Assembly: GCA_035495115.1 (NCBI GenBank)
Contig: DATJGJ010000007.1
Location: forward strand, 3,136-67,135
DNA: 64,000 bases
Reading direction: 5' to 3'
Origin: Minisyncoccota bacterium
GTDB taxonomy: Bacteria > Patescibacteriota > Minisyncoccia > Phycocordibacterales > PALSA-1337
Shown here piece by piece: positions 12,975 through 63,888 of this stretch. The notes beneath the pieces were generated by a model. The model worked only from the letters and a program-made list of their open reading frames with translations. It made no database searches and had not been told where the DNA came from. Every line of letters begins with the position of its first letter. The first letter of the stretch is position 1. Both the position numbers and the translations under genes were made by a program.

Positions 12975-15278
12975 CTATTTAAGTTTTTTGGTTTTAAGTC
13001 GAAGAGAGTTTGTAACTACTGAGACGCTGCTGCCTGCCATAGCAAGTCCAGCGAATATTGGATTGAGTACAATCCCCCAGATCGGATACAGAAGCCCGGC
13101 TGCTATCGGTATACCAATAACATTATAGATAAATGCCCAAAATAGGTTCTGCTTCACCGTCTTCATGGTCGCGCGCGATAGCTCAAACGCTTGAGAGAGC
13201 TTGCTAATATCCCCATGGAGCAAAGTTATGCCCGCCGACTCAATCGCAATGTCTGTTCCAGTGGCCATTGCGATACCTACATCTGCTTGCACGAGCGCTG
13301 GCGCATCGTTAATACCATCGCCAGCCATAGCAACTTTTCTGCCTTCGTCTTGAAGTGCTTTGATCTTCCCAGCTTTTTCTGCTGGCAAAACTTCCGCGAT
13401 GACCGTATCAATACCTGCTTGTTTGGCAATATATTGAGCGGCGAGATGGTTGTCACCTGTGAGCATGACGACTTTGATTCCTCTTTTGTTGAGCTTTGCT
13501 ATTGCCTCTACCGCTTCAGTCTTCAACGTATCGCTCAAAGCAATGAGTCCGACAATCTCTTTATCGACTTCAACCACAACAACGGTCTTGCCCTGCTCTT
13601 GAAGCGCTTTTAGTTTATCAATGTGTGAGGACTCGCTTCTACCTGGCTTATGGATATATATTTCTTGATTTCCAAAAGTTGCCTTCACACCAACCCCATC
13701 CAAAGCGACGAAATTTACCGCCTTCTCGATTGTGATTTTTCTTTCAAGCGCCTTGGCGACGATCGATTCTGCTAATGGGTGCTCTGAGAGCTTTTCTATG
13801 CTGGCAGTGACTTGGAGCAGACGAGATTCATCCCACGCTACATTAAGAATAATAATATCCGTCACCTCAGGTTTTCCTTTTGTGATTGTTCCTGTTTTAT
13901 CGAGAACGATAGTATCTACTTTGCTCAGCTTCTCGAGGGCCTCAGCGTTCTTTATCAAAATGCCATACTCAGCCCCTTTGCCGACCCCAACGATAATAGC
14001 AGTCGGTGTAGCGAGACCGAGCGCACACGGGCAAGCGATAACGAGTATGCCGACAAATGAGAGGATGCCGTATGATAATGCCACAGAAAAACCGAGAACG
14101 GCCGTACCAACGGTTAGCCAGACGAGTAGCGTAAGCAGCGCTATGCCGAGAACAACCGGCACAAATATGCTCGAGATCTTGTCAGCAAGCGCTTGAATGG
14201 GCGCTTTTGAGCCTTGAGCCTCCTCAACCATGCGTATGATCTGAGACAAGACCGTGTCAGACCCGATCTTAATTGCGCTCAATCGGATATTTCCTTGTTT
14301 ATTGATTGTTGCACCAACAACAAGATCGCCAGCTTTCTTATCGACAGGTATCGGTTCGCCAGTGATCATAGATTCATCGATTGATGACAATCCTTCTATG
14401 ATCTTTCCATCTACAGGAATCTTTGCCCCAGGTCTAACGATGATGATATCGCCAATCTTAACTTCGCTTACAGGTATCTCTTGCTCGACACCGTCTCTAA
14501 AAACAAGAGCTGTTTTTGCCTGCAATCCAATGAGCTTTTCTATCGCTTCGCCTGTATGTAATTTTGAACGTGCTTCGAGATATTTGCCGAATATGACAAA
14601 GCCTATAACAACGATAGTCACATCAAAATAGGTGTATTCAGGTAAATTCAGTGCCAGACGAACTTGTGGCAACAAAGTGATAATGACACTATAGCTATAT
14701 GCTGTGAGCGTGCCTATACCAATCAGTGTATCCATATTGGCTACGCGGTACTTTATGAAGCGAACCACACCCTGTAAGAACGGCTGACCGATCCAGAACA
14801 TGACAACGGTGGCGAGCACGAGGCCGAAGGCATTAAATATTTCCATTGAAATCGGAAGCTTCGGTATGAATGAGAGCGTCTTTGAACCTATATCCCAAAG
14901 CATAAAGATAAATACAATAAGTGCAACTGGCAGCACGAATCTGATCTTATTTTTCATGCGGGTAAGTTCCTGTATCTTTTCATCTTTTGTTTGATTCAAG
15001 CCAAGGTGCTTGGCATGGTCTTCCGGAGACATATTCATCGACTCAGCGGTCGACCCATGTGGCGCTGAGCTATCAGCGAACTCATACCCAAGCTTTTTAA
15101 TCTCAACGTTCATTTTTTGGACATCGACTTTGTCTTGGTCGAACTCTAGTTGCACCTTTTCTGTTGCAACATTCACGTTTACTGATTTAATACCATCAAG
15201 CTTTGATATCTTTTGGGTTATGATCGCGGCACAGCTTGCACAATGCATTCCTATAACTTGTAGTGTTTTTTTAATCAT
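12975..15278 (-). CDS. copA: Copper-translocating P1B-type ATPase
   Basis: N-terminal HMA (GMHCASCAA), CPC motif ([11 protein letters not shown]), DKTGTIT phosphorylation site, [10 protein letters not shown]. Confidence 0.9.
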
Positions 15279-15296
15279 ATTTTTATAGTCAGATAA

Positions 15297-16667
15297 TTAA
15301 TCGATAACATTGAAAACACCTCTATACATGCCCATCGAGCAGGTAAAGCGCATTTGTCCGGTCTGCGTCGGTGTAAACTCGATGGTGTTCTCTCCAAGCT
15401 TGAGGGGCTGAGCAATATTTGCAGACGGCATAGAGATATACGCAGCGCAAGTGAACTGGCTTTCACTAGTGATTTTCCATACGACTGGTATGCCCTTTTT
15501 TATCGTGAACTGATTTGGGCTGTAGCCGGCTATTTGTTGAGTCATGTAGACCATCTGCTTACCATTTACGATTTCAACAGGTTTTTTTGAAGAACCGCCG
15601 ACGCTCTCCGCGATCGACCCGAATGAAGGCAGCGAAGGCAATGACCAGCCAGTCAGATTGAAGCCAGTAGTCATATTGAAGAATGCGAGCACAATAACGA
15701 CGATGCCTGCGAACTTGAAGAAATGACGCGCGAAGCTGCCACGGATAGCCGAGGTGAGCCCGCCAATGCCTATGATGCCCGGTAGCGTCCCGAGAGCGAA
15801 TAATCCCATTATCAGCGCCCCTTGGGCGAAGCTGCCTGTGCTGATAGCATAGAGCTGCATCGCCTGCGTAAAGCCGCACGGGACGAAAAATGTCAAAGCT
15901 CCCGTGATGAATGATCCGCGATGGCTATATTCTTTCGTACCTGTATTCAAGCCGAAAAATGCTGCGATGCTTTTCGGCAGAACTAGTCCCTTATTTTGAA
16001 GCCGAGGAAATATCTCGATCAATTTGAGCCCGAGGATGAGCATAACGAATCCCAATATCATCGTTAGGGTGCCGAGCACTGGCGAGGAAAGCTTGAATGC
16101 GGACCCCAATATGCCGATAAGGCCGCCGAGCAGCGCATACGAAACCAACCTTCCTAGATTAAAGAATATATGAGGTCGAAACTTTTCTCCTGTTGTAGCG
16201 TCTGGGTGCAGCTCAGCGTGTCGTGATGATATGCCGAGCACAAGTCCGCCAATGAGTGCCATACATGTCGAGATGCCTGCCGTAAGCCCGATAAGAAGCA
16301 CGCCGACAAGCCCTGGCGTTCCGTCCAAATTTAGATTTAGATCAAACACGCCGAACGTTCGCAAGATTATATATGAAAGGAATACAAGGCATCCTGCGAC
16401 TGCCAGCTCAGCGTAGTCTTTTGCATTCCTTGAGAAAAAATGTTTTTTATCTTCGATTCCGAGCGTATATCCGGCATTATTGATGGCCTTTTCTATATCA
16501 CGCATATGTGGCTCATCGCCAAAATACTCGATCTCAGTAGTACCTTTCTTGTAATGTGTTGCAACTTTTTTTATTCCATGAACTTCACCTATACTCTGGT
16601 CGAGAATAATCTCACATGAACGACAATGCATCCCTTTGATTTGTAATACGATTTTTTTGTGCGCCAT
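15297..16667 (-). CDS. HMA-domain membrane protein (DsbD_2/TauE-like permease core) with a C-terminal cupredoxin-like domain
   Basis: N-terminal GMHCRSCE metal-binding motif, central polytopic TM region, C-terminal beta-rich domain with a C..M.M motif; lies between csoR and copA. Confidence 0.55.
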   Translation of the reverse strand: MAHKKIVLQIKGMHCRSCEIILDQSIGEVHGIKKVATHYKKGTTEIEYFGDEPHMRDIEKAINNAGYTLGIEDKKHFFSRNAKDYAELAVAGCLVFLSYIILRTFGVFDLNLNLDGTPGLVGVLLIGLTAGISTCMALIGGLVLGISSRHAELHPDATTGEKFRPHIFFNLGRLVSYALLGGLIGILGSAFKLSSPVLGTLTMILGFVMLILGLKLIEIFPRLQNKGLVLPKSIAAFFGLNTGTKEYSHRGSFITGALTFFVPCGFTQAMQLYAISTGSFAQGALIMGLFALGTLPGIIGIGGLTSAIRGSFARHFFKFAGIVVIVLAFFNMTTGFNLTGWSLPSLPSFGSIAESVGGSSKKPVEIVNGKQMVYMTQQIAGYSPNQFTIKKGIPVVWKITSESQFTCAAYISMPSANIAQPLKLGENTIEFTPTQTGQMRFTCSMGMYRGVFNVID

Positions 16668-16678
16668 GGGTATATGAT

Positions 16679-16945
16679 TTACTTTTGAGCTAACTTATAA
16701 ATCTTAAGTATCTCTGCAACAGCCTTTTTTTCTTCACCACTATTGATCTGCTCAGTTACGTGGGTTTCAAGGTGATTTTGTAAGATCAAATTTCCGACGC
16801 CTGAAAGCGCCTCGCGGACCGCTTCGACCTGTGTGATAATGTCAACGCAATATTTTTCCTGTTCGACCATGTCTTGGATACCCCGAACTTGCCCAGCAAC
16901 TATGGAAAGCCGGCGTTTTGCTGAATTTTTAATATCAATTTTCAT
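16679..16945 (-). CDS. csoR: CsoR/RcnR-family copper-sensing transcriptional repressor
   Basis: 88 aa with the conserved C..H..C pattern (KYCVDIITQV...LQNHLETHV); first gene of a Cu operon. Confidence 0.8.
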   Translation of the reverse strand: MKIDIKNSAKRRLSIVAGQVRGIQDMVEQEKYCVDIITQVEAVREALSGVGNLILQNHLETHVTEQINSGEEKKAVAEILKIYKLAQK

Positions 16946-17027: not shown

Positions 17028-18035
17028 TTATTTGTCGCTATTGTCATTCCCCCTATTTATATTTTTTAGCTTCCCCAGCTCGAGCCCGCGATCGATTGAG
17101 ATAGATGCCTCTTGAGCCTTTTTCTCTGACACATTGATTAGCACATCAGCTGCTGCATCATTATGTTTTGAATAGCTATCTTCTGCTTGATTGAGATTGC
17201 TTTGAGCATTTTGGATCGATGTTGAAGCCGTATTCAAGATATCGCGCTCAAAGGAGTCATTTGAAGCGTGGATCTGTATATTAGCTTGTATCTTTTGATC
17301 TGTTTCTTGTATCACCTTCTGAACCTTATTTTTCCTTTCAGGAAATTCGTTTTTACCAGTATTCAACGGAATAATGACTTTTACAGATGTGGTAGAAGAG
17401 TCAGCATTATCTTCGTTGTTACCAAGCTTATCTTTGCTCTGATTGATTGCATGCTCAATGTCTGCAATATGGGACTTCTGGTCGTTTGAAGAATGGTCTT
17501 TTATAGACTGCAAGACAGTAGCATGAGCCGCGAGTGTTATGTCCAATTGATCTTTGTTTCTATGAGAAAGGCTTGTATTCAACGCACGAACTTGCACATC
17601 CACCGCCTCGCCCAAATCGCTCGCAGTTGTGCTTGCAAGTCGTCCCTGCACCGCCAAGGTCTCCGCCTCTTTAAGTCTCTCTTCTACTTGAGCGACTTGA
17701 ATTTTTTGTCTTTCTTCAGCATTGAGAGCTAAAGCAACTTTGATGGGCTCTGAAACATGTATTTTTACGGGATACAGCACATCACCCGGCAATGCTGATT
17801 CGCTTGCGAACACAGTTGTGCCTCCAGCGAGGAGCATAATCAAAAAGCTCGCTAGAACGTATGACAATGGTCTATTGAAATGGCGCGTCCAAATAGAGAT
17901 AGAGTATGGACTTTTGACTGATGGATTTGAATCAGCGTACCAGTTGAGCACATCGAAAAGCGTCGCCTTTTCTTTTGGAGTAAGGGAAATTTTTTTAATA
18001 TCTTCTATTGTATTTTTAATAGTATTGTCTTTCAT
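17028..18035 (-). CDS. Putative anti-sigma factor / membrane-anchored coiled-coil protein cotranscribed with the ECF sigma
   Basis: Starts 6 nt after the sigma stop; cytoplasmic N-terminus, one TM (LSYVLASFLIMLLAGG), extracytoplasmic coiled-coil region. Confidence 0.4.
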   Translation of the reverse strand: MKDNTIKNTIEDIKKISLTPKEKATLFDVLNWYADSNPSVKSPYSISIWTRHFNRPLSYVLASFLIMLLAGGTTVFASESALPGDVLYPVKIHVSEPIKVALALNAEERQKIQVAQVEERLKEAETLAVQGRLASTTASDLGEAVDVQVRALNTSLSHRNKDQLDITLAAHATVLQSIKDHSSNDQKSHIADIEHAINQSKDKLGNNEDNADSSTTSVKVIIPLNTGKNEFPERKNKVQKVIQETDQKIQANIQIHASNDSFERDILNTASTSIQNAQSNLNQAEDSYSKHNDAAADVLINVSEKKAQEASISIDRGLELGKLKNINRGNDNSDK

Positions 18036-18040
18036 GTGAT

Positions 18041-18571
18041 TTATTCTCGTGGTATATCGTACCCGGTCATCTTCCGTAATTCCTCAAGTGCTCTAAATAT
18101 ACGAACGGACACAGCATTTTCTTGGATATTAAGGATTTGTGCTATCTCTTTTGGTTTCAAATCTTCAATATATTTAAAATAAAGAACTTGCTGCGAGGTG
18201 TGCGGGAGAGATTTGATCTTATCGAGCAAGAACCGACTTTCTGTGTTCATCTCGAGCGCCCCCTTAGCATTATCTTCTACAAGAGCAAACTCTTCAGGGT
18301 CTTCGTTGTCTTCCTGAAGCTCTTCGAGCGAAATGGCTTTTTTCTTTCTATACCAATCAATGATGCTGTTGCGAGCTATAGTGAAAAGGAATGCCTTATC
18401 ATTCAAGACACTTGTCCCTTTGATCAAACTATCCCAATAGCGCATAAATACATCTTGCGTGATATCTATAGCCACATTTCGGTCAGACACTCGTAAAAAA
18501 CAGAATCGAAATATCGAATCCGAATGCTCGTTATATACTTTTACAAATCGGTCTTTCACTCGAGTGTTCAT
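18041..18571 (-). CDS. RNA polymerase ECF-type sigma-70 factor
   Basis: Region 2 (DITQDVFMRYW) and region 4 HTH (PKEIAQILNIQENAVSVRIFRA). Confidence 0.85.
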   Translation of the reverse strand: MNTRVKDRFVKVYNEHSDSIFRFCFLRVSDRNVAIDITQDVFMRYWDSLIKGTSVLNDKAFLFTIARNSIIDWYRKKKAISLEELQEDNEDPEEFALVEDNAKGALEMNTESRFLLDKIKSLPHTSQQVLYFKYIEDLKPKEIAQILNIQENAVSVRIFRALEELRKMTGYDIPRE

Positions 18572-20904: not shown

Positions 20905-21279
20905 TTAACGATGAACGCTAGCCAAGAGAGCCATCCAGCCATTTGTCGTAAATACCTGAGCCATCTTCATGCGCGTAATCGGGCCATAGTATCCTGTAGG
21001 CATTACTCCTATCGATGCCTGATAGCTTGAGAGAGCGGCCTTGGTTAATGGGCCAAAGTATCCGAATGGCACACCAACTGGCATGACGAGATATCCCTGT
21101 TCGCCCAACAATCCTTGTAGATCAGCAACATCGTCTCCACGTGAACCAACAGTCAAATCACGGCCAGTGAGAGTCGAGATCGCTGAAGCAAAAGCGCTGT
21201 GCGGCATTGAATACAATGCGATTCCTGATGTGAGCACAAGGGTCAAGACACTGCCAAATACGATTTTTTTAAAGGTCAT
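20905..21279 (-). CDS. Secreted peptidoglycan-binding (PG_binding_1-like) domain protein
   Basis: Signal peptide from the internal Met (MTFKKIVFGSVL...), LTVGSRGDDVADLQGLL...FGPLTKAALSSYQAS. Confidence 0.5.
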   Translation of the reverse strand: MTFKKIVFGSVLTLVLTSGIALYSMPHSAFASAISTLTGRDLTVGSRGDDVADLQGLLGEQGYLVMPVGVPFGYFGPLTKAALSSYQASIGVMPTGYYGPITRMKMAQVFTTNGWMALLASVHR

Positions 21280-21376
21280 GGTAGTTATTATTAGTACTAA
21301 TAATATAATAGGATTCGACCAAGTTCCTATCATCTACTAGTGACGTATTAAAACACGATTTTATTACGCTTTTTTA

Positions 21377-52854: not shown

Positions 52855-54843
52855 CTATTGTACAGCCTCAGAACTGATAATATATGATCTCGTTTTTGGC
52901 CCAAAATACCCTATTGACGGAAGAATGTTATGCACTGCTTGGAATTTAGCCAAAGCTTTTTGTGTTAGCAGACCAAAATATATAGTTTCATGGTTCAGTG
53001 AACCTAGACCAGTAACAGCAACCAGGAATCCGTGCGTATTTAAATACTTTTGAAGGTTTTTGACATCAGAGCCACTGCTACCCATTTGCAATGAACGATT
53101 GAAGGTACCAGTAATTGTGGGAGATGTTTTAAGGCTATTTAGATAAACTGTAGTTGAGGCGCTTGGAGCAAGAAGCGTCGCAAGATAGGAAGGCGAAACA
53201 AACCCCCCGCTATGGGAAACAGTAGTAATTGACGAGCTAGGTATCGTAACTGTAGGACACGGATTTGTAGTAAACGTCTGGTCGGAAGTGCTTGTTGATC
53301 CGATAATATTACTTGCAAAAGCTTGATAATGATACACAGCACCACAATCCAAATTTGTTAGGTCTTGAGAGAAAGCGCCGAAAATATACTCTCCTGTCGA
53401 AGATGCTGATTGCCCATAACTTGAAGTTTTACCAAAATTAAATCCTCGCACTGTAGTTGTTGCCCCACCATCAGTTAGCAACATCGCATTCAAAGTGGCT
53501 GATGCGGCGCCGATCAAAGTGCTCGTGGCGTCAGTGATCATAGGAGCAACTGCACTGATAGTATTTATCGTGCCTGTAGTTTTTTGGTGATCATAGGATG
53601 TCTCTACAGTAACATTAACCCCACCTGTACCAATAAAAATATCCTTGGCGCCTGTTCCAGAAGATGAGAGCGATCCACCAAATAGATTTACTAAGGAATT
53701 GTTATTAGTTGATACTGCGTAATTGGCTGCATCTGAGCCGCTTACATTAATTATCGTATTATAAGAATTGATGACGTTTGCAGCTACACCTTGAATTCCT
53801 CGCGAATACGCGCCAACAAATAGTAACGGATTAACGGTGGCTGTTATATCACTCTGATAGATATTGACTCTATTTCTACTTGACCAATTGAATGTGTCAT
53901 ATTTTGTATCGATTGACACATTGACCAATGTAGAGGATATATCTGTTACAGGAGGAACACCAGACTGATTGAGATTAACGTAAAAACCATCAGTTATGCC
54001 ATGAACATAAATATTTTTAAATGATGCATGGATAAAACCGTTATCGCCATAATCACCAGAAAGATTATTTGAAATAATATACTTATAGCCCGATGTGTTC
54101 AAATCAACTAGTGATAAATCAGAAACCTCTGAACCATCAGCAAAAGAGAGGACAGGAATACCGTCCTCAACATTTGTGCTTTTGATTATAGTGTCATATT
54201 TGCCTGACCCATGCAGATTTATGTGACCAGTTGGCATTTGGTACTGATATGAGTCAAAAACAGTACCGTCACCATCATTAAACGTGAGTGACGTCGTTGC
54301 ATATGAAGCAAACCATGAGCCAGCATCATCAGTAAAAAAATCTATCTGATACATTGAAGCGTTGGGCACCGCAGGCCACGTCACTTGTATGTAAAAATTA
54401 TTGCCAGAATTATTATCTGGAAGCATATTCGTATCGTATGCAGAGACCCATGTCCCGTTTACTAATGCCGAAATATGATATTTGTAACTAATCCCTCCAG
54501 TCACTTTGTCACCTGAACCATAATGAAAAATTGGCGTTATCAATGTTGACGGCTTATATAAACTAATCATGCTTCCAGTTATGTCAAAAGTACCTGAAGA
54601 AAGATACACTGAATCACCGTCTACTGCAGCCGCTATTGCTGTCAAAAGAGCTTGTCCTTGAGCAGAATCGGAACTTGAGGTTGCATTATAGACAGATACA
54701 CTTTGATCACTGTGGACAACACGAATTAAATCAGTTGATGCAGAAACATTATTAACTAATATAAGATAAAAAAATAAAAAACTTCCTAAAAAATATTTAA
54801 TCCGCATATATTTTATATTGTACCCTTTTACATACCTAGGCAA
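52855..54843 (-). CDS. Large secreted protein with a C-terminal peptidoglycan-binding domain
   Basis: Signal/TM N-terminus (true start may be the internal Met giving MRIKYFLGSFLFF); Ser/Thr/Asn-rich beta-rich body; C-terminal PG_binding_1-like (GSSGSDVKNLQKYLNTHGF...GYFGPKT). Confidence 0.5.
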   Translation of the reverse strand: MPRYVKGYNIKYMRIKYFLGSFLFFYLILVNNVSASTDLIRVVHSDQSVSVYNATSSSDSAQGQALLTAIAAAVDGDSVYLSSGTFDITGSMISLYKPSTLITPIFHYGSGDKVTGGISYKYHISALVNGTWVSAYDTNMLPDNNSGNNFYIQVTWPAVPNASMYQIDFFTDDAGSWFASYATTSLTFNDGDGTVFDSYQYQMPTGHINLHGSGKYDTIIKSTNVEDGIPVLSFADGSEVSDLSLVDLNTSGYKYIISNNLSGDYGDNGFIHASFKNIYVHGITDGFYVNLNQSGVPPVTDISSTLVNVSIDTKYDTFNWSSRNRVNIYQSDITATVNPLLFVGAYSRGIQGVAANVINSYNTIINVSGSDAANYAVSTNNNSLVNLFGGSLSSSGTGAKDIFIGTGGVNVTVETSYDHQKTTGTINTISAVAPMITDATSTLIGAASATLNAMLLTDGGATTTVRGFNFGKTSSYGQSASSTGEYIFGAFSQDLTNLDCGAVYHYQAFASNIIGSTSTSDQTFTTNPCPTVTIPSSSITTVSHSGGFVSPSYLATLLAPSASTTVYLNSLKTSPTITGTFNRSLQMGSSGSDVKNLQKYLNTHGFLVAVTGLGSLNHETIYFGLLTQKALAKFQAVHNILPSIGYFGPKTRSYIISSEAVQ

Positions 54844-55609: not shown

Positions 55610-56512
55610 TTACGCCTTCTCTTCACTCACAATAGTCACAGCCTTTGCAACGATCGGTAGAATATCGTTATAAAAGTTAAGTTCCAATATTGCATCAAGC
55701 TTGAACCATTTTGCATCAGCAAGACCTGGCTTCTTGGCAAGTGTAAGTGTCTTGAAATCTGACTCTGCCAGATAGTAGTGTACTTGCTTGCGAATCTTGC
55801 CAATCTCAGGGTCGTTTGCGATATATTCATTTTCACCAAGATCAGCGACTATCTTTACTTCGAGACCAATCTCTTCCATCACCTTGTTGATAGTTCCCTG
55901 CTTTGGATCAACTTCTGGAGGAATCTTACCTTTTGAGAGTGTCCAGTGACCGAAAACGTCATAAACGAATGCCATATAGACATCTACGCCATCACGAGCA
56001 TATACCACTGCACCACCCAAGTGTTGAATTGGCATTTGCTCATAAGGGACTTCGACCTTCTTTTTCTTTATCGGCTGGGCGTCTTTACCTGGTTCTCCGA
56101 GCTCCTTGTAAACTGCACCGAGCACACCATTGACGAAACGACCACTTGTCTCACCACCGAAAGTCTTTGCAAGCTCAATCGCTTCATTGATAGCCACCTT
56201 TGCTGGTACTTCGACACGATCCGCAAAGAGAAGCTCATAGAGACCGAGACGGAGTACGTTACGATCTATCGGAGAGATCTTGTCGATTGGCCATTCGGGA
56301 GCAGCCTTCGATATGATGTCATCGAGTTCGCCATGCTTTGCGAGAATGCCCTTCATAAGCTCGTCCATAAAAGAAACATCAGCTACTCCTGGTGCGAATT
56401 CTTTTGCATCGCGCAGGATGATAGCTGAAGCTGTAGTGTCTTTTCGGCCACAAAAATCCCACTCAAAAAGTGCCTGGAGGACAACTGAGCGTGATAAATG
56501 TCTATTTGCCAT
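55610..56512 (-). CDS. nusB: Transcription antitermination factor NusB fused to a C-terminal Nudix-like domain (degenerate Nudix box)
   Basis: The N-terminal ~145 aa are NusB-like (RSVVLQALFEWDF...ETSGRFVNGVLGAVYKE). The C-terminal ~150 aa show a Nudix fold pattern (GGAVVYARDG...WTLSKGKIPPE...NKVMEEIGLEV), but RE of the Nudix box is replaced by NK. Confidence 0.65.
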   Translation of the reverse strand: MANRHLSRSVVLQALFEWDFCGRKDTTASAIILRDAKEFAPGVADVSFMDELMKGILAKHGELDDIISKAAPEWPIDKISPIDRNVLRLGLYELLFADRVEVPAKVAINEAIELAKTFGGETSGRFVNGVLGAVYKELGEPGKDAQPIKKKKVEVPYEQMPIQHLGGAVVYARDGVDVYMAFVYDVFGHWTLSKGKIPPEVDPKQGTINKVMEEIGLEVKIVADLGENEYIANDPEIGKIRKQVHYYLAESDFKTLTLAKKPGLADAKWFKLDAILELNFYNDILPIVAKAVTIVSEEKA

Positions 56513-56938: not shown

Positions 56939-57011
56939 GCGCCCATAGCTCAGCTGGTAGAGCAGATCCCTCTTAAGGATAAGGTCGTAGGTTCGATCCC
57001 TACTGGGCGCA
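56939..57011 (+). tRNA. tRNA-Lys (anticodon CUU)
   Basis: Acceptor GCGCCCA/UGGGCGC, D-arm GCUC-AGCUGGUA-GAGC, anticodon loop CUCUUAA (one mismatch at 27-43), T-arm GUAGG-UUCGAUC-CCUAC, discriminator A. Confidence 0.75.
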
Positions 57012-57139
57012 CAAACCGAGGGCACGTAGGTTTGTGCGAGCCGCAGGCCTGACGAGGCCGAGGCGGGGTCGCGAGATTTTCTAGCAAGAAAATACTCGTG
57101 ACCACAAACATGGTAATATAATAAACAATCAAATAATTT

Positions 57140-57221
57140 GCTGGGATGGCGGAATTGGTATACGCACATGCCTTAGGAGCATGCGGAGTAATCCTTGGGA
57201 GTTCGAGTCTCCCTCCCAGCA
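57140..57221 (+). tRNA. tRNA-Leu (anticodon UAG), class II
   Basis: Acceptor GCUGGGA/UCCCAGC, anticodon stem CAUGC/GCAUG with loop CUUAGGA, long variable arm, T-arm GGGAG-UUCGAGU-CUCCC, discriminator A. Confidence 0.85.
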
Positions 57222-57290
57222 CAAAATTGACCTTCAGCATTTTTTGTGTTATTTTGTTTTTGAACCCTGAACAATCAACAATACAAAGTT

Positions 57291-57737
57291 ATGTCTCATG
57301 AAATAAATGAAATGGTGAACATCCTGCTCTATGCAGGCGCCCCTGAAGCAGACAAGAAACTGACACTCAAACTTTTGGCCATGCTCGATCAGCTGCATGT
57401 CAAGAACATCAGCATTACCGCTGGTTTCGTTGATGATGACGCAGCGATCGGTGCCCTGGAATCACTCAAGAAAAGCACTGGGCACATCGATTTGGTCGCC
57501 ATCAAATCGGGAAGCAAAAAAACTCGTTTTCGCGTGGCCTTTCACGCTGAGAAACTCGGTATCAAGACAGTAGTCTGGTCAGCTCACACGCATTTTGTGC
57601 ATTCGTGCCATAATCTTAAAGCATCGTTTGTCCGTGTCAGATACAAAGACATGGAAAAAGATCTGGACTTGGTAGCTGAGGCTATCAAGCACGAAATCAA
57701 TAAGCTACGCAAACCCAAGCCAGTTCTTCCCAAATAG
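57291..57737 (+). CDS. Hypothetical protein
   Basis: 148-aa ORF; no recognisable family. Confidence 0.35.
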   Translation: MSHEINEMVNILLYAGAPEADKKLTLKLLAMLDQLHVKNISITAGFVDDDAAIGALESLKKSTGHIDLVAIKSGSKKTRFRVAFHAEKLGIKTVVWSAHTHFVHSCHNLKASFVRVRYKDMEKDLDLVAEAIKHEINKLRKPKPVLPK

Positions 57738-57935
57738 CGATCGAATCTACCAATCCCTGTATAGTCACTTTGTGATCTATATGGGGATTTTGTATCTATT
57801 GACTTTTACCCATATTTGTAGTAGTATAGTACTAAAGTGCATTCGGAGGTGAAAACCTCAAGAGCACGTTGAAAAACCAATAACAAAAGGGTTTAAATTC
57901 CTGAGCGAAATGCTCAAAAACGAAAGGACCGAAGA

Positions 57936-59399
57936 ATGAAAAAGATTCCTATGAATCCGGTAACTGGCCTCGAGGTCAGCCCGAATGGTGACACACTTGT
58001 GTTCAATCCTCCGGCAGGCGGTGCTCCGCACGGCATGGAGGTCATTGTCGTTGACTCTGCAGTGCTTATCGAAGGTAAAAAGCATGAGCCTACGCTCGGC
58101 GTTAAGCTCGACAAAGTTGATGCAAGTCAGTCATGTAGTATTGGATTGGCTGGGATGGAATGGAGAGGTGAAAACTATCCCCTCAAGCCCGGCGGCAAAT
58201 ACCATGTCTATGTGACTGTCCTCGGTGGGAAGGTCGGCAACGAAATGCGCGCGGATAGCGAGCTCGCCACGATCAGCTTCTTCATGAGTTCCACTCTCGC
58301 CAGCATCATCCAAGTTCAGTATGAAATGGATCGCTTCGAGAAGGAGTTGAAGAAAAAATATGGCGAAGACGACGTCCGACGCCTGATTAGCGAAAACGAC
58401 CTTGCCATCAGCGAAGGCTTTGATGAGCAGGTGAAAAAACTCGCAAATGGCGAGATTGCCGGCTCTGAAACGATCAAGAAGTTGCAGGAACAGGTCAAGT
58501 CATTGAAGGACACCATCGAAGCAATCAAGAAAGCTCCGGCGGCTCGTTCATCTACGAACTCGACATGCTTCACGCCTGCTGAAGTGCTCGGTGCTCAACA
58601 AAATTGGCGCTGGGCACTGGCTGTTGCGTGCATCCTCGGCTTGGCGATAATCGCTGGACTGCTGATGAGCAACTACTGGTCGCACTATTCTAGCGCTCCT
58701 GCGCCTCAACCCACGTGGGCTGGCGTCTGGGGTGGCACGATGGGCACCAATGATATCCCGATCGGTTCGACGTTCGCCACAAGCGGCTGTTCGACAAATG
58801 GTGTCGGTGCCGTTCAGGCATTCAACAACACCGGGACCATCAGCAGCAACAACAACTGCAACTTCGGCATCAAGGTATATGTCCTCCCCCCGCCAGTGGT
58901 CAAAGTGCCCTGTCCTGTCCAGTTCCAAAAGAATGAGACACAGTGCGCTCCTGAACCTACGCCACCACCTGCCCCAAAGCAAGCAGTGCTCCAGGGAACA
59001 GATAGCGGCGACCAAAGCGAGGAGTGTCAGGAAATCATCAGTGAGGACCTGTCGCAGGCTCCGCTGCCGAGCACGCAGGTTATCTGCAGCTCTGAGACAC
59101 GACCGATCGTTGGTGTTGGCATAGAGCTTCAAAGCTATGCCGACTACAACCATTCGATTGGGTGGAACGGGGGCTGGGACGATGACCATCACAGAAGAAA
59201 CTGTTACCCACCTGTAAGACGGTGGCCTGCATATAACCCCATCCCCTTGCCTCCTGTTCAACCCGTAGGCGTAGTATGTTTGGATGGTAATTATCAAGGC
59301 AATTACGGTAACGTTGGCATTGTGAAAGCAAGAAACAATCCCCGAATGGTTGTGGCGTCAAATGTGAGCCGCAGACAAGTGGGCGGAAAACACCGCTAA
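57936..59399 (+). CDS. Hypothetical membrane protein with a Cys/Pro-rich C-terminal region, in a GC-rich (about 54%) island
   Basis: 487 aa; central TM (WALAVACILGLAIIAGLLM); C-terminal CxxC, CPxQ and PPP motifs; GC clearly above the genome background. The Arg-rich antisense ORF 58548-59297 is judged a GC artefact. Confidence 0.4.
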   Translation: MKKIPMNPVTGLEVSPNGDTLVFNPPAGGAPHGMEVIVVDSAVLIEGKKHEPTLGVKLDKVDASQSCSIGLAGMEWRGENYPLKPGGKYHVYVTVLGGKVGNEMRADSELATISFFMSSTLASIIQVQYEMDRFEKELKKKYGEDDVRRLISENDLAISEGFDEQVKKLANGEIAGSETIKKLQEQVKSLKDTIEAIKKAPAARSSTNSTCFTPAEVLGAQQNWRWALAVACILGLAIIAGLLMSNYWSHYSSAPAPQPTWAGVWGGTMGTNDIPIGSTFATSGCSTNGVGAVQAFNNTGTISSNNNCNFGIKVYVLPPPVVKVPCPVQFQKNETQCAPEPTPPPAPKQAVLQGTDSGDQSEECQEIISEDLSQAPLPSTQVICSSETRPIVGVGIELQSYADYNHSIGWNGGWDDDHHRRNCYPPVRRWPAYNPIPLPPVQPVGVVCLDGNYQGNYGNVGIVKARNNPRMVVASNVSRRQVGGKHR

Positions 59400-59575
59400 T
59401 AACAACACATTACACAGCCCGTAGATGCAAATCTACGGGCTTTTTTTAACGAAATACTAACTTGACTTTTCAAGTAAAACATGATAATATAGTATAGTAG
59501 TGTGAGATGTGCCCCATTGGGACACAATGACCTTTAAAATAACGTCAGTAAACAACAACCAGTAAGTGCACAAAA

Positions 59576-60220
59576 ATGCGCTTACACAACCGGAGAATTG
59601 TAATGGAAACTATTCTGAGAAAGATACATGTCTATTGGTTATCGTTCACCATGTTTTTTGTGAACCGCAATCCTGAGACAGGCTATGTCCAGTGGACATG
59701 GCGGCCGTGGGTCAATTTTGCCGGCCGTTTTGTGTGCTGTGCGCTTCTGTTCCTTGTGGCAGCATTCATCGTCGCAAGATACCAGATTCGAGACCTGACA
59801 CCGTTCTTCACATCGACGACACAGACTGAAACAGTCCTGACAGAGGCTAGTCCGTTGATCGCTGGTTATGTGGTGAATGGAGAATCGCAAGATCCGCCCG
59901 TGACGAACATTCTTGTTGTGGTCAAATCAGGCGAACTCAAACTGCTGAAAGGTGAAAAAGTTATGCTTGATTTCCACGATGGCAATGGGCGTTACGGGAT
60001 CTCGGCGAGCCTCGGCAGACTTGGCGCAAAATGCGTCGTATGGGATCCTGATCATGATATCAAACCCATTATTCTCAGCGACAATGTCCCATTGGATCTT
60101 GATCACGGAGAAGGAACAAAAACGACACACATTTGTGTAATGGCAGCTGATGATTCAGAAGTTCTGATGTATCAGTTGACAAAGTGGTATCATCGAAGAT
60201 TGGTTGTCGCTCAAAAGTAA
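59576..60220 (+). CDS. Hypothetical membrane protein
   Basis: 214-aa ORF with two N-terminal TM helices; the start could be the internal Met at 59603. Confidence 0.35.
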   Translation: MRLHNRRIVMETILRKIHVYWLSFTMFFVNRNPETGYVQWTWRPWVNFAGRFVCCALLFLVAAFIVARYQIRDLTPFFTSTTQTETVLTEASPLIAGYVVNGESQDPPVTNILVVVKSGELKLLKGEKVMLDFHDGNGRYGISASLGRLGAKCVVWDPDHDIKPIILSDNVPLDLDHGEGTKTTHICVMAADDSEVLMYQLTKWYHRRLVVAQK

Positions 60221-60229
60221 AACAAACGC

Positions 60230-60266
60230 AACAGGCGAGGAATTTTATTCCCCGCCTGTTTTTTTG
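60230..60266. terminator. Intrinsic terminator (AACAGGCGAGG...CCCCGCCTGTT followed by TTTTTTT)
   Basis: Stem-loop plus T-run between converging genes. Confidence 0.55.
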
Positions 60267-60280
60267 AATCTTATTTTCTC

Positions 60281-60529
60281 TTACTGGCCTGAAATCGTAT
60301 TTGATATGAAATATACGATACCCCACGCAGATGTCATAATGACCAAACCGATGATACCTGCGAGCATGTGCCATCGTCCCTTTTCACGTGCAGACGAGTC
60401 ATCGCCGTTCATCATCATTTCTACGATGCCCCAGACGAACACGATGATCGCCACGGCGAACATGAGCATAATGATCGGATCGACGATATTGGTGATGATC
60501 GGGTCGATAACTTTAGCGAAGGTATCCAT
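60281..60529 (-). CDS. Small T4SS-pilin-like (TrbC/VirB2-like) membrane protein, paralog 1
   Basis: 82 aa: two hydrophobic helices separated by a charged loop (NGDDSSAREKG), the architecture of VirB2/T4SS pilins. Confidence 0.5.
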   Translation of the reverse strand: MDTFAKVIDPIITNIVDPIIMLMFAVAIIVFVWGIVEMMMNGDDSSAREKGRWHMLAGIIGLVIMTSAWGIVYFISNTISGQ

Positions 60530-60538
60530 ACGTTACTT

Positions 60539-60898
60539 TTAAGGAACCTGTGGAGGATAGTTCAGCTGCGGGAAATTCTGAGTAGGAGCGTTCGTATTTG
60601 TCCTGAATGTATTTGAGAGAATGTTGACGAGACCCCAGATAGAGAGGATGACGAAGAGACCAACGATACCCCAGAGAACTGCACCACCAATCGACTTGCG
60701 CTTTTCTGGATCTTCAGCAGCCATGATGTAACGTACGACGTTGAAGATGATATACAAAACTGCAAAAGCGATAAGGATCTCGATAATGGTATTACCGATA
60801 TTGGTCAACTTGTATGTGAGGGTATTCACATCAGTGATCGCCTGAGCACTGACGAGTGCAGGAGCGAAAGCGGCAACGAGTGCGATGATTTTTTTCAT
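60539..60898 (-). CDS. T4SS-pilin-like (TrbC/VirB2-like) secreted membrane protein, paralog 2
   Basis: Signal peptide MKKIIALVAAFAPALVSAQA, helix, AAEDPEKRK loop, helix. Confidence 0.55.
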   Translation of the reverse strand: MKKIIALVAAFAPALVSAQAITDVNTLTYKLTNIGNTIIEILIAFAVLYIIFNVVRYIMAAEDPEKRKSIGGAVLWGIVGLFVILSIWGLVNILSNTFRTNTNAPTQNFPQLNYPPQVP

Positions 60899-60998
60899 TT
60901 TCTTATAAGCTAATGGATAATAAATATAATACTATGTATCAAGTATACCTCGACTCATTCAAGAGGGGCAACCTGATATGTGGATTAGTTAGGCGCTT

Positions 60999-61463
60999 TT
61001 AATGAGGAAAGACGTTTGTAATATCGTTCCATGAACTATGCGAGAAGCTCGAGTTCCCTATACCGAACGTATTTTGAAGGATATTGACCAATCCCCACAT
61101 CGATAAGATGACGAAGAAGCCAATAACACTGTACATCACATATGTGCCAGCTTGCTTTCGATCTTCATTCGGCATGATGAAATATTTGAAGACATAGTAT
61201 ACGAACACAACCACTGACAATGCGATGAGAAGGAAGAGGATTTGATTCAAGTAGCCGATGACTCGCTCGATGAGCGAACAAAGAGTCAGATTGCCTGTAC
61301 TACACTGCGTACCAGAACCTGCACTGTTGTAATTGCTACCGTATGTATTACCGTATGACGCTCCCCCAGTGAGATTTATGTTGATTCCTCCGATCGCTGC
61401 GAACGACAAGACCGGGCTGACAAGGATAATAAAAGCGAATAGTGGAATAAGTATTTTTTTCAT
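60999..61463 (-). CDS. T4SS-pilin-like secreted membrane protein, paralog 3
   Basis: Signal peptide MKKILIPLFAFIILVSPVLSFAA, variable Gly/Asn/Ser region, helix, PNEDRKQ loop, helix. Confidence 0.55.
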   Translation of the reverse strand: MKKILIPLFAFIILVSPVLSFAAIGGININLTGGASYGNTYGSNYNSAGSGTQCSTGNLTLCSLIERVIGYLNQILFLLIALSVVVFVYYVFKYFIMPNEDRKQAGTYVMYSVIGFFVILSMWGLVNILQNTFGIGNSSFSHSSWNDITNVFPH

Positions 61464-61473
61464 ATGAATAATA

Positions 61474-62058
61474 TTATTGGTTATTAATCGCATTTTGCGC
61501 ACTCTGGATCACCGCCGGATTGACAGTCCCTGTTGACTGGAGCGTATTGATGATCACCGTAATCAGTATACGCGCGCCCAAGATGACGCCGATACCCACA
61601 ACCACCCACAGGAGCTGGTTGCTGCGCTTCTTGATCTCCTCAGGGTTACCGCGAGCAAGGACGAACTGGAGACCGACCCACATGAGCATGATCACACCAA
61701 AGATGACCGCAAGATAACTGACGATCTTCATAAAGGTAAAGATAAGATCGCTGATCGAATTGACTCCTTTGAGCGGATTAGAAAGTGTGGTGACAGTATT
61801 GCTGTTGTTGCTACCAGCACTTGTATTTTGCTTTGCGGCGCTTGTATTTGTAGGATCGATCGGTGATCCAGTCATGGTTGCAGGCTGAGATGGTGAACCA
61901 GTCATCGTGCCAGGTACATCAGTGGCTGGTGTAGGATTTGAACCATAGTAGTTAGGTAAAGTTGTATCAGGGTTTGTGCTTACATCATTAGCCGCAAAAC
62001 TTGCCACTGGAAGCATGAGGATGGCCAATACTACGACCGATACAATTTTTGTTTTCAT
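61474..62058 (-). CDS. T4SS-pilin-like secreted membrane protein, paralog 4
   Basis: Signal peptide MKTKIVSVVVLAILMLPVASFAA, Thr/Pro/Ser-rich variable region, helix, GNPEEIKKRS loop, helix. Confidence 0.55.
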   Translation of the reverse strand: MKTKIVSVVVLAILMLPVASFAANDVSTNPDTTLPNYYGSNPTPATDVPGTMTGSPSQPATMTGSPIDPTNTSAAKQNTSAGSNNSNTVTTLSNPLKGVNSISDLIFTFMKIVSYLAVIFGVIMLMWVGLQFVLARGNPEEIKKRSNQLLWVVVGIGVILGARILITVIINTLQSTGTVNPAVIQSAQNAINNQ

Positions 62059-62085
62059 GTGTGAAAAATTCATATGAATAAATAA

Positions 62086-62580
62086 TTATGGGTTGCCAAG
62101 CAACTTGGTGAAGGCCGAGTTCCCTGTAAGCCAGCTCAAAATCTGATACACGATGAACCAAGCCGACAGCATGATGACAAATCCCCACAAAATCTTTGGA
62201 AAAATATCTTTTGCCTTATTTCTGTCGCTATCTGTGCCTTTCAACATGAGATAACCTGCATATGTGAAGAGTACGATAGCCGCAAAAACACCGAGCACCA
62301 TAGCAATATTTATAAGATGTTGAACAGTGAGCATTGCTCCGTTAAAATTACATACGACATAGGGTCGAGTCTGGCCAGTTGGCTTGCCATTATTGTCATA
62401 TAGAGGAACAGGTTTGTTGATGGCCGGATTATCAGGCCCATCGCACACCACAATTCTGAACGATGATTGTGTAGGATCTTCACTCGCCGCTGGTGAAGTG
62501 AGCGTCTGCACACCTTGAGCAAAAACGACTGGTGTAAGCAGTAAACTGAGGGTAAAGAGTGAGAAAAGAGTTTTTTTCAT
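62086..62580 (-). CDS. T4SS-pilin-like secreted membrane protein, paralog 5
   Basis: Signal peptide MKKTLFSLFTLSLLLTPVVFAQG, variable region with two Cys, helix, KGTDSDRNKAKD loop, helix. Confidence 0.55.
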   Translation of the reverse strand: MKKTLFSLFTLSLLLTPVVFAQGVQTLTSPAASEDPTQSSFRIVVCDGPDNPAINKPVPLYDNNGKPTGQTRPYVVCNFNGAMLTVQHLINIAMVLGVFAAIVLFTYAGYLMLKGTDSDRNKAKDIFPKILWGFVIMLSAWFIVYQILSWLTGNSAFTKLLGNP

Positions 62581-62589
62581 ATGTGCGGA

Positions 62590-63888
62590 TTACTGTGATG
62601 TTGCCTGTCTGATCAAGGCGTCGAACTGCTGCCCCGTATCTTCGATAGCTTGGTACGAAGATTTCTTTCCGGTCGTGATAGATTCTACCATATTACCAAA
62701 GAGCTGAGCTGTCTGAACAGGATCTGGATCGAGCCATGACTTACTGACCAGTGCAGCTTCTCCGAATACTGAGAGATAAGGGTCACTCGAACCTTGAGCG
62801 ATCAAATCTGTGCGAACAGGTGGCAGATACATATTCTTTGCGAGCGTTGCGAGATATGTCGGATTTGTCAGCGCTGACAAGACCTGATAAGTGCCATTGG
62901 CATTTGCCGAAGTGCGCACGATTGAAAAGCCGAACATTTTTCCATACGTAGCTTTTATCCCTCCTTTACGAATCTGTGGCAATGGCGCCGCGTCAAAATT
63001 CAAATTTTCATTCTTGCTTCTGATACCCTTGATCTCAGAAGCAAAGCCGAAATACGTAGCGAGGTTGCCTGCGAGAAATGCGGTGCGAGAATCAGGCATA
63101 CCGCGGTTCCAAGAATAGTTGCTATTGGTCGGATCGATAAATTGCGAAAAGAAATCAAGGGCAAGCTTAGGATTTACGCTTGCTGATATGCGTAATGTCG
63201 TCTGGAGCGCGCCTTGCGCATTGTATGTCGTGACTGGATTGCCCATTTGCATAAAAAGCGAACCGAGTATCTCGCGAGAGCTCAAGACATTGGTAAAATC
63301 ACCGAGCGCAATCGCAGACTTTCTGATATTTCCATTCGAATCTTTCACGGTCAGCTTTGGAATGATGGTATTGAATTCGTCCCAATAACGAGGATATGTC
63401 GCTATGCCTGCCGTATTGTACATGTCGCGATTCCAATACATGATGAGAGGATCGATCGTGAATGGCAGAGCGAGTATGCCTGTATCAGTCGTATATAGCT
63501 GAGCTTCTTGAATATATGTATCCATGAATGTGCGCGCGGGAAAAGCCGAATATGGGATAACTGCAATCTTATCTTCATGTGGAAGTAGCATATCCGAAGA
63601 TATGAGGATAGCGTCTGGACCAGTACCACGAGCGAGCGCAGCTATGAACTGCTGTGAAAAAGCTGATGGGTCAATCTGCTTGTATGTGATAGCGAGCGGA
63701 GTCGTAGCTGTGTTATTTATATTTGAAACATAGTCATTGAAAATGCTCGATGAAAATGTGCCCCATACGGTGATAGCGGGCAAAGTGGTGCTCGTCGAGG
63801 TGTTGCCTTTGTACATCGCGAAAGAAACAACGCCCGCAACGATGAACAGTACGAATATGCCGAGAAGAATGATTTGAAATTTGGTCAT
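62590..63888 (-). CDS. Membrane-anchored extracellular solute-binding protein (ABC-transporter substrate-binding-like)
   Basis: N-terminal TM, ~400-aa periplasmic-binding-protein-like composition; the family assignment is tentative. Confidence 0.45.
   Translation of the reverse strand: MTKFQIILLGIFVLFIVAGVVSFAMYKGNTSTSTTLPAITVWGTFSSSIFNDYVSNINNTATTPLAITYKQIDPSAFSQQFIAALARGTGPDAILISSDMLLPHEDKIAVIPYSAFPARTFMDTYIQEAQLYTTDTGILALPFTIDPLIMYWNRDMYNTAGIATYPRYWDEFNTIIPKLTVKDSNGNIRKSAIALGDFTNVLSSREILGSLFMQMGNPVTTYNAQGALQTTLRISASVNPKLALDFFSQFIDPTNSNYSWNRGMPDSRTAFLAGNLATYFGFASEIKGIRSKNENLNFDAAPLPQIRKGGIKATYGKMFGFSIVRTSANANGTYQVLSALTNPTYLATLAKNMYLPPVRTDLIAQGSSDPYLSVFGEAALVSKSWLDPDPVQTAQLFGNMVESITTGKKSSYQAIEDTGQQFDALIRQATSQ

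Follow-up and report, generated by a model that had tools for sequence, protein, structure and literature searches.

Arrays of divergent VirB2-like genes are a described feature of Patescibacteria. A survey of 3,035 Patescibacteria genomes with the profiles PF18895 and PF04956 (Quinonero-Coronel et al., 2025; PMC12102498) found VirB2-like genes in 1,948 VirB4-positive assemblies, near virB4 in 1,135; it reported 441 arrays in 383 assemblies, made up of 2-11 genes that share 25% identity on average, and suggested a role in antigenic variation or host range. An earlier study (Wang et al., 2023; PMC10633639) describes as essential the pilin subunits predicted within the Ca. Southlakia epibionticum gene cluster for a type IV secretion system (T4SS), SEML1_0014-0019 being annotated as PF18895 and the transposon sequencing (Tn-seq) rows SEML1_0017-0019 being scored essential. 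With arrays published in 2023 and 2025 the phenomenon is already known, and the literature treats as open what the essential T4SS and the VirB2-like array do in these bacteria (PMC11665869, PMC12857230). Here we analyse one such array, five consecutive minus-strand genes that we call g1 to g5, in a 64,000-nucleotide stretch of contig DATJGJ010000007.1 (hereafter the window).

The array falls within the published definition, consisting of at least two tandem PF18895/PF04956 genes of low mutual identity in a Patescibacteria host. We propose, with about even confidence, that this chromosomal Paceibacteria operon encodes an extracellular solute-binding protein (SBP) and five non-redundant VirB2-like subunits that would form one heteromeric envelope structure, likely built by a T4SS. 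Its new features are the fixed orthologous five-gene set, the link or fusion to the SBP, a promoter-like spacer ahead of g2, and the location apart from virB4.

An ancient set of five VirB2-like paralogues

The original prediction had described a tandem array of five minus-strand genes, and we recovered all five open reading frames (ORFs) at the positions it gave in the 64-kb window (Table 1). For g3 the longest ORF spans 60999-61502 (167 aa); with the MKK start at 61463, as in an independent gene call on a public contig, the protein has 154 aa. Profile searches supported the proposed VirB2/TrbC-type family, mainly through PF18895 (T4SS_pilin; gathering cut-off 26.6 bits), which scored g1, g2, g4, and g5 at 46.4, 44.2, 37.5, and 31.3 bits, respectively. 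At 26.5 bits g3 fell 0.1 below the cut-off, and its family hidden Markov model (HMM) matches g2 at E 2.3e-32. The PF04956 (TrbC/VirB2) profile gave a match for g4 only (23.6 bits, E 6.2e-5; cut-off 27.9) and none for g1, g2, g3, or g5; the g4 orthologue cores matched both PF18895 and PF04956 in 23 of 23 cases (best PF04956 E 2.7e-8).

We also compared the five proteins with NF045849, the Mbov_0395 pilin-like conjugal transfer protein model (cut-off 40 bits), and obtained 40.3 bits for g4, 38.0 for g2, 26.2 for g1, 21.9 for g3, and 19.5 for g5. These matches indicate relatedness and not equivalog membership. There were weak NCBIfam matches to TcpD and pLS20_p028, and a match to ComGF was insignificant (E 0.096). 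HMMs built from each orthologue group find the other four paralogues (E 2e-32 to 6.5e-4) and match no other window ORF of at least 40 aa, from which it follows that the window holds exactly five homologous genes. Pairwise identity among the five window proteins is 17-33%. Membership of the array in the VirB2-like "T4SS pilin" family is thus supported by the profile matches.

Hydropathy places two hydrophobic helices in each of the five proteins, and the five loop peptides quoted in the original prediction are all present. The layout is of the PF18895 type, with two hydrophobic helices and a short charged loop over about 70 residues, as seen in hydropathy and in AlphaFold2 (AF2) models of g2 (pLDDT 78; helices 24-59 and 64-97) and g5 (strands within 43-76; helices 79-114 and 117-153). 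The claim that the five share one architecture holds for the helices and fails for the rest: a Sec-type signal peptide and a variable region are both missing from g1, in the window and in all 78 orthologues, and of these two g2 has the signal peptide alone. N-terminal extensions are confined to g3, g4, and g5, and an A-x-A-like site ends the predicted signal peptides of g2-g5. A type IV or competence pilin was considered and rejected, since a Sec-type signal peptide and two helices take the place of a class III peptide and a single N-terminal helix; a PilB/PilT-type ATPase was likewise absent from a Pfam scan of the window ORFs. The competence pilus offered earlier as one explanation is therefore dropped.

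In many g1 orthologues (L007, L009, L013, L018, L020, and others) the conserved "D..AFG..v.PI" start is preceded by a non-Sec leader, 10-14 aa long, that ends in …AHAA or …AYAK, with g1 lying near position 10370 of each locus. The window copy and L006 are without it. This leader may be a propeptide.

We compared the locus with those of relatives in a scan limited to one genome per species, which returned 80 loci (loci are labelled L, for example L016, and protein representatives P, for example P0292). About 70 species loci, or virtually all those with sufficient flank, share the collinear order SBP-g5-g4-g3-g2-g1, which is held even where the identity of g2 to the window copy is 37-45%; one sub-lineage has one additional g2-like copy. 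In the orthologous cores 44-64% of positions are retained, far above the identity between paralogues, which places the duplications before the origin of the clade. Each paralogue keeps its own signature, for example the g5 Cys pair CDGP…C(D/N)F, in which C46, G48, P49, C77, and F79 are invariant in 41 homologues, and the mature N-terminus and Pro-rich tail of g2. Across 32 g2 orthologues the mature N-terminus, helix 2, and the C-tail are near invariant, and variation is found only in the loop.

The N-terminal regions behave differently from the cores. In g3 the core is 64% retained across species and the N-region 6%, and the g4 N-region retains 13% of positions. These g3 and g4 regions are hypervariable between species, with indels and ORF lengths of 110-412 aa; linker length in orthologous g4 ORFs ranges from 121 to 412 aa, consistent with the 30-nt internal duplication found in the window copy. 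The ratio of nonsynonymous to synonymous divergence (dN/dS) was 0.03-0.10 in cores and 0.11-0.34 in N-regions, at most 0.35 everywhere, values that are indicative only because dS is saturated (at least 0.8, several undefined) even against the closest relatives. Against the closest relative dN is 0.02 for g2, the lowest of the operon, and 0.10 for the SBP. Recombination-grade repeats linking the paralogues were not found; the DNA repeats present are short and 75-85% identical, and gene conversion or recombination between paralogues was rejected on this ground.

These alignments show the five genes to be ancient paralogues, each with its own orthologue under purifying selection and in a fixed order. 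The fixed order, individual signatures, low dN/dS, and lack of recombination-grade repeats argue for five specialised subunits and not for an antigenic-variation cassette. The alternative, put forward in PMC12102498 and raised for this locus by the original prediction, is that the paralogues are interchangeable pilin variants, one at a time building the structure, for antigenic variation or host-range switching. Tandem divergent paralogues do recall the Bartonella and Anaplasma VirB2 arrays cited in that survey, and the N-regions of g3 and g4 differ greatly from one species to the next, with indels and a tandem duplication inside g4. The number of genes and their order are nevertheless fixed over about 70 species, each paralogue keeps its own architecture (signal peptide or none, Cys pair, C-tail), dN/dS stays below 0.35 even in the linkers, repeats fit for recombination are absent, and fusion to the SBP is specific to one paralogue. 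We consider interchangeable variants quite improbable.

Within the operon, the spacer ahead of g2 has a median of 87-100 nt, compared with 3-18 nt at all other junctions. A promoter scan of the window spacer located a -35 element TTGCCC (60971-60966) and, after 18 nt, a -10 element TATACT (60947-60942); a -35/-10 pair occurs in 49 of 70 spacers under loose criteria without a background control, several pairs lying 0-9 nt from the ATG. The motif TCCACA (60984-60979 in the window) is present in 58 of the 70 g3-g2 spacers. The promoter-like spacer, taken with the extreme constraint on g2, suggests that g2 may be made in excess, as a major subunit. Downstream, the operon ends in a strong intrinsic-terminator-like hairpin (60260-60230); the genes beyond it are convergent and show no conservation in relatives.

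TCCACA often takes the form TAATCCACA (window 60979-60987, minus strand; spacers of L006-L085). In the window the motif is about 9 nt upstream of the -35 element, and TAATCCACA occurs there only once; a similar TAATCCGCACAT stands before the g5 start. TCCACA/TAATCCACA could be a regulator-binding or UP-type site. An identical 13-nt TTCATATGAATAA is found at the g3 and g4 start junctions (61459-61471 and 62069-62081), where a common TAAT…CATATG pattern suggests duplicated translational-coupling junctions.

Table 1. Positions of the array genes, the solute-binding protein gene, and associated elements in the window
Feature	Position	Strand	Description
g1	60281-60529	minus	82 aa; leaderless PF18895 paralogue, hairpin alone; last gene of the operon
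g2	60539-60898	minus	119 aa; minimal PF18895 paralogue with signal peptide (…SAQA), hairpin, and Pro-rich C-tail
g3	60999-61463	minus	154 aa from the MKK start; signal peptide, Gly/Asn/Ser-rich linker, hairpin
g4	61474-62073	minus	199 aa; PF18895/TrbC-like; signal peptide, long Thr/Pro/Ser/Asn-rich linker, hairpin
g5	62086-62580	minus	164 aa; signal peptide, small Cys-pair beta domain, helical hairpin; SBP-proximal
SBP	62590-63888	minus	432 aa; membrane-anchored family-1 extracellular solute-binding protein; first gene of the module within the window
Tandem duplication, 30 nt	61862-61914	minus	In the g4 linker; two copies of MTGSPxxPxx; direct repeat D8
Spacer before g2, about 100 nt	60899-60998	minus	Promoter-like pair and upstream TCCACA
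Terminator-like hairpin	60220-60260	minus	14-bp stem with 7 GC pairs, then T-rich tail (terminator scan; inverted repeat I6)

The solute-binding protein and its fusions to g5

In about 70 species loci the gene immediately preceding g5 encodes an SBP; that of the window matches PF01547 and PF13416 (SBP_bac_1/SBP_bac_8 fold) and has a single N-terminal hydrophobic segment (residues 1-29). Its closest solved relative is 4r9f, "MBP1" (E 1.7e-11). The gap between the SBP gene and g5 is 9 nt in the window and has a median of 3 nt over 68 loci. We further found in-frame SBP-g5 fusions in at least three divergent lineages (L016/P0292, P0288, L052, and P0366). The P0288 fusion is backed by five member sequences from JGI, the L052 fusion has no signal peptide between the SBP and g5, and the divergent P0366 fusion, with 38% identity to P0292, matches both SBP_bac_1 and PF18895, the latter at 30.0 bits, above the cut-off. 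The predicted topology of the fusions is consistent with a coherent protein, in which the SBP would lie outside, followed by the g5 ectodomain and the hairpin. The comparison of loci thus shows the SBP to be an obligate neighbour that, as the fused reading frames indicate, is sometimes covalently joined to g5.

Permease and ATPase (nucleotide-binding domain) genes are not among the conserved neighbours of the SBP in the approximately 80 loci, and the locus therefore differs from an SBP-dependent ATP-binding cassette (ABC) importer, in which the SBP is encoded with permease and ATPase subunits. We found no mention of an SBP-pilin association in the literature searched, and the term "solute-binding" occurs 0 times in PMC12102498.

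Two further observations concern these proteins. P0361 (586 aa) aligns end to end with an SBP-g5 fusion at 54% identity and has no Pfam match; it was not used as evidence. Among the g4 orthologue cores (alignment A3), 12 of 23 gave weak matches to PF04290 DctQ (best E 8.5e-6). DctQ is the small membrane subunit of SBP-dependent tripartite ATP-independent periplasmic (TRAP) transporters. The matches may reflect hydrophobic composition only.

Secretion machinery and the proposed structure

Relatives are named Taylorbacteria, Parcubacteria, or Patescibacteria. In NCBI the exact g2 protein bears the name "pilin [Candidatus Paceibacterota bacterium]", and the entry for the SBP reads "extracellular solute-binding protein"; the host lineage is Candidatus Paceibacterota, related to Taylorbacteria. 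The window is ordinary chromosome, encoding ClpB, SMC, RNase III, a NusB-NUDIX protein, L32, TopA, ParB, DprA, aminoacyl-tRNA synthetases, cell-wall enzymes, and transporters, and the GC content of the array is typical of it. In all relatives the flanking synteny runs from gyrA and a methyltransferase gene through the SBP and the array to NusB, RNase III, and SMC.

We considered whether the genes might encode a conjugative pilus, a role named in the original prediction, as part of an integrated mobile element. The family name, the nearby tRNA genes and variable region, and a serine recombinase about 9 kb away in one relative (L002) could be read in this way. However, the operon sits within conserved housekeeping synteny in all relatives, relaxase, VirD4, and VirB4 were not found by Pfam among the window ORFs, and the GC content does not set the array apart; relaxases are also rare in Patescibacteria (PMC12102498). 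Because the chromosomal housekeeping synteny is conserved, the mobile-element or conjugative reading is effectively refuted, and we regard it as very improbable.

The proposed heteromeric structure can be outlined as follows. Once their signal peptides are cleaved, g2-g5 would be membrane-embedded, both termini facing outward and the charged loop inward, like VirB2-type pilins, and the SBP and g1-g5 would assemble into one structure. g2 would be its bulk (major) subunit, being minimal, the most constrained, and preceded by the promoter-like spacer. g3, g4, and g5 would be low-copy subunits bearing flexible or folded extracellular extensions, with g5 tying the structure to the SBP, whose predicted ligand is a host-derived or host-surface glycan. 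These major and minor roles and the binding of a ligand by the SBP are what we infer from features of the sequences. The structure would most likely be polymerised or used by a VirB4-type T4SS encoded elsewhere in the genome (present in most Patescibacteria, and near dnaA in Paceibacteria), and its role would be host attachment or uptake and not conjugation. In favour of this reading stand also the precedent of six essential PF18895 genes in Ca. Southlakia epibionticum, the wide occurrence of such arrays, and VirB4 in two operon-bearing assemblies.

Several observations weigh against this reading, most of them concerning the T4SS. No ORF like VirB3, VirB4, VirB6, VirB8, VirD4, or PrgI was found by Pfam in any window ORF of at least about 70 aa. 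Past the right edge, where the original prediction had advised looking for VirB4, VirB6, and VirD4, the 5.4 kb available on the public contig contain the methyltransferase, gyrA, and further housekeeping genes and no T4SS component. Nor did we find a T4SS component within 10 kb of the operon in about 80 relatives, so that the array has neither mating-pair-formation neighbours nor virB4 in its proximity. Five operon-bearing assemblies could be cross-referenced to Table S1 of the survey: VirB4 is listed for L011 and L067 and not for L084, L075, or the poorly annotated L012, against an overall prevalence of 80%, from which a sample of five does not differ significantly. Metagenome-assembled genomes (MAGs) are often incomplete, which may explain the VirB4 absences. 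Moreover, no solved VirB2, TraA, or TrbC pilin was reached by profile or fold search: PDB profile searches with the g2 and g4 orthologue alignments retrieved no pilin, and the fold searches were non-discriminating. Finally, a filament built of PF18895 proteins is not reported for any organism in the literature searched, and a review of 2025 speaks of a monoderm pilus in this group as an "intriguing possibility", wording which implies that no filament has been demonstrated.

Some of these points would be accommodated by a T4SS-independent, SBP-linked membrane complex, a self-contained device for uptake, sensing, or adhesion for which "pilin" would be an evolutionary label only. The SBP is the sole conserved partner, T4SS genes are not nearby, SBP-g5 fusions exist, VirB4 went undetected in three of the five cross-referenced assemblies, and the weak DctQ matches in 12 of the 23 g4 orthologues point the same way. 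On the other hand, no known transporter is made of two-transmembrane-helix subunits alone, no large permease or ATPase is adjacent, and the DctQ matches are weak and maybe compositional. TRAP systems use SBPs of another family. The lack of VirB4 in a MAG is an unreliable sign, a sample of five does not differ significantly from the 80% base rate, and the homologous Southlakia array sits inside a T4SS cluster. We judge such a complex unlikely, though it carries some weight.

Another alternative is that the proteins are non-filamentous parts of a T4SS channel, lining or gating the translocon in the monoderm envelope like the small two-transmembrane-helix proteins of Gram-positive conjugation. 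It draws on the NCBIfam matches to the Mbov_0395 family of Mycoplasma integrative and conjugative elements (ICEs), on the weak TcpD and pLS20_p028 matches, and on the general lack of pili in monoderm T4SSs (PMC12857230). The signal peptides, the long extracellular linkers of g3-g5, and the extracellular SBP indicate instead an exposed structure, and the array genes are unlinked to channel genes. Sequence data alone cannot separate channel parts from the proposed structure, and we rate them as rather improbable.

A bolder version of the proposal would be a distinct Paceibacteria organelle, a heteromeric VirB2-type fibre or conduit in which g5 would bear a glycan-binding SBP, assembled apart from or without the VirB4 T4SS and capturing host-surface or host-derived carbohydrates; this we put forward as doubtful. 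If it were true, it would be the first SBP built into a conjugative-pilin-type structure. The locus offers three handles on the function of such arrays. Its fixed five-subunit composition suggests a major-plus-minor architecture and not antigenic variation; the covalently confirmed tie to a carbohydrate-type SBP points to glycan binding or nutrient capture; and the natural uncoupling from the virB4 locus allows a phylogenomic test of the need for a T4SS. Should the SBP belong to the structure, a module for binding nutrients would be physically joined to an apparatus with which these host-dependent bacteria are thought to act on their hosts.

Neighbouring genes and relation to known systems

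The methyltransferase gene, just past the right edge (Logan contig), encodes a 172-aa class I S-adenosylmethionine-dependent enzyme and immediately precedes the SBP gene, on the same strand. It adjoins the SBP in 69 loci, with gyrA before it in 56, at about -3.5 kb from g2 (L002-L085). It may belong to the operon, for example as a modifier of the subunits, or may be a syntenic neighbour only. On the other side, the original prediction had placed the array beside a GC-rich island and tRNA genes. The positions are right (tRNA-Lys/tRNA-Leu genes at 56939-57222; a 54% GC stretch at 58-59 kb), but the region is variable, not conserved, and unrelated to the array. Between the terminator and the tRNA genes (57291-60220) it holds ORFs of 148, 487, and 214 aa that are essentially without counterparts in relatives and for that reason not part of the array feature; proteins at this position in relatives are unrelated, large, and unannotated or fn3-containing. 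The 487-aa ORF has 54% GC; its product has one transmembrane segment, in the middle of the chain, and is rich in Pro, Gly, and Cys in its C-terminal half. Taken as a whole, the interpretation given in the original prediction is partly supported.

Elsewhere in the window, the minus strand carries a copper-handling cluster at 12975-16945 (a CsoR-type metal-sensitive repressor, an HMA-DsbD_2-cupredoxin fusion, and an HMA-bearing P-type ATPase) and, at 17028-18571, an extracytoplasmic function (ECF)-type sigma factor followed by a DUF5667 protein. DUF5667 is common in Patescibacteria, and we presume that the protein beside the sigma factor may be an anti-sigma factor. A 300-aa NusB-NUDIX hydrolase fusion (55610-56512, minus) is found in the same form in relatives. 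Proteins with a C-terminal PG_binding_1 domain are encoded at 52855-54843 and 20905-21333 (minus); the PG_binding_1 protein of 662 aa has about 590 unannotated N-terminal residues and could be a cell-wall-active enzyme.

The closest described systems are the other Patescibacteria arrays (Southlakia; PMC10633639, PMC12102498), which share PF18895 (some PF04956), 5-6 tandem genes, about 25% identity, a chromosomal location, and the lack of a relaxase. The Southlakia array lies inside the T4SS cluster, whereas here any T4SS gene is 60 kb or more away to one side and 5 kb or more to the other. Among the Southlakia cluster genes examined no SBP appears, whereas here an SBP precedes the array and is sometimes fused to it; the SBP link, the fixed five-gene set, and the g2 spacer are not mentioned in either paper. 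A 2026 preprint on a "Pam pilus" in the Candidate Phyla Radiation (CPR) was considered as a precedent and set aside, as it concerns unrelated Ig-fold pilins.

With classical VirB2, TrbC, and TraA the array shares a cleavable leader, two hydrophobic helices, a short charged loop, and small size, and g4 and its orthologues match PF04956, the window copy below the cut-off; the array differs in its monoderm host, five subunits in place of one, N-extensions of up to about 100 aa, and the absence of adjacent virB genes. The VirB2 paralogues of Bartonella and Anaplasma are likewise several divergent VirB2-type genes in a row, whereas here number, order, and paralogue features are fixed over about 70 species under purifying selection and without signs of recombination. 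Mbov_0395 of Mycoplasma ICEs is a small two-helix protein of a monoderm MPF-FATA-type system, but its family is ICE-borne and single-copy, whereas the genes described here are chromosomal, five-fold, and SBP-linked.

Type II secretion systems and type IV pili use one abundant simple subunit and about four distinct low-copy subunits encoded together, the minor ones bearing extra domains or adhesins. The likeness to these pilin sets is one of analogy only: fold and biogenesis are unrelated, there is no class III signal peptide here, and the subunits have two helices and not one. The SBP, for its part, shares its fold with the family-1 SBPs of ABC importers (4r9f), with a weak but significant sequence match. 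It differs from them in having no adjacent permease or ATPase, an N-terminal transmembrane anchor, and a VirB2-like protein as its operon or fusion partner.

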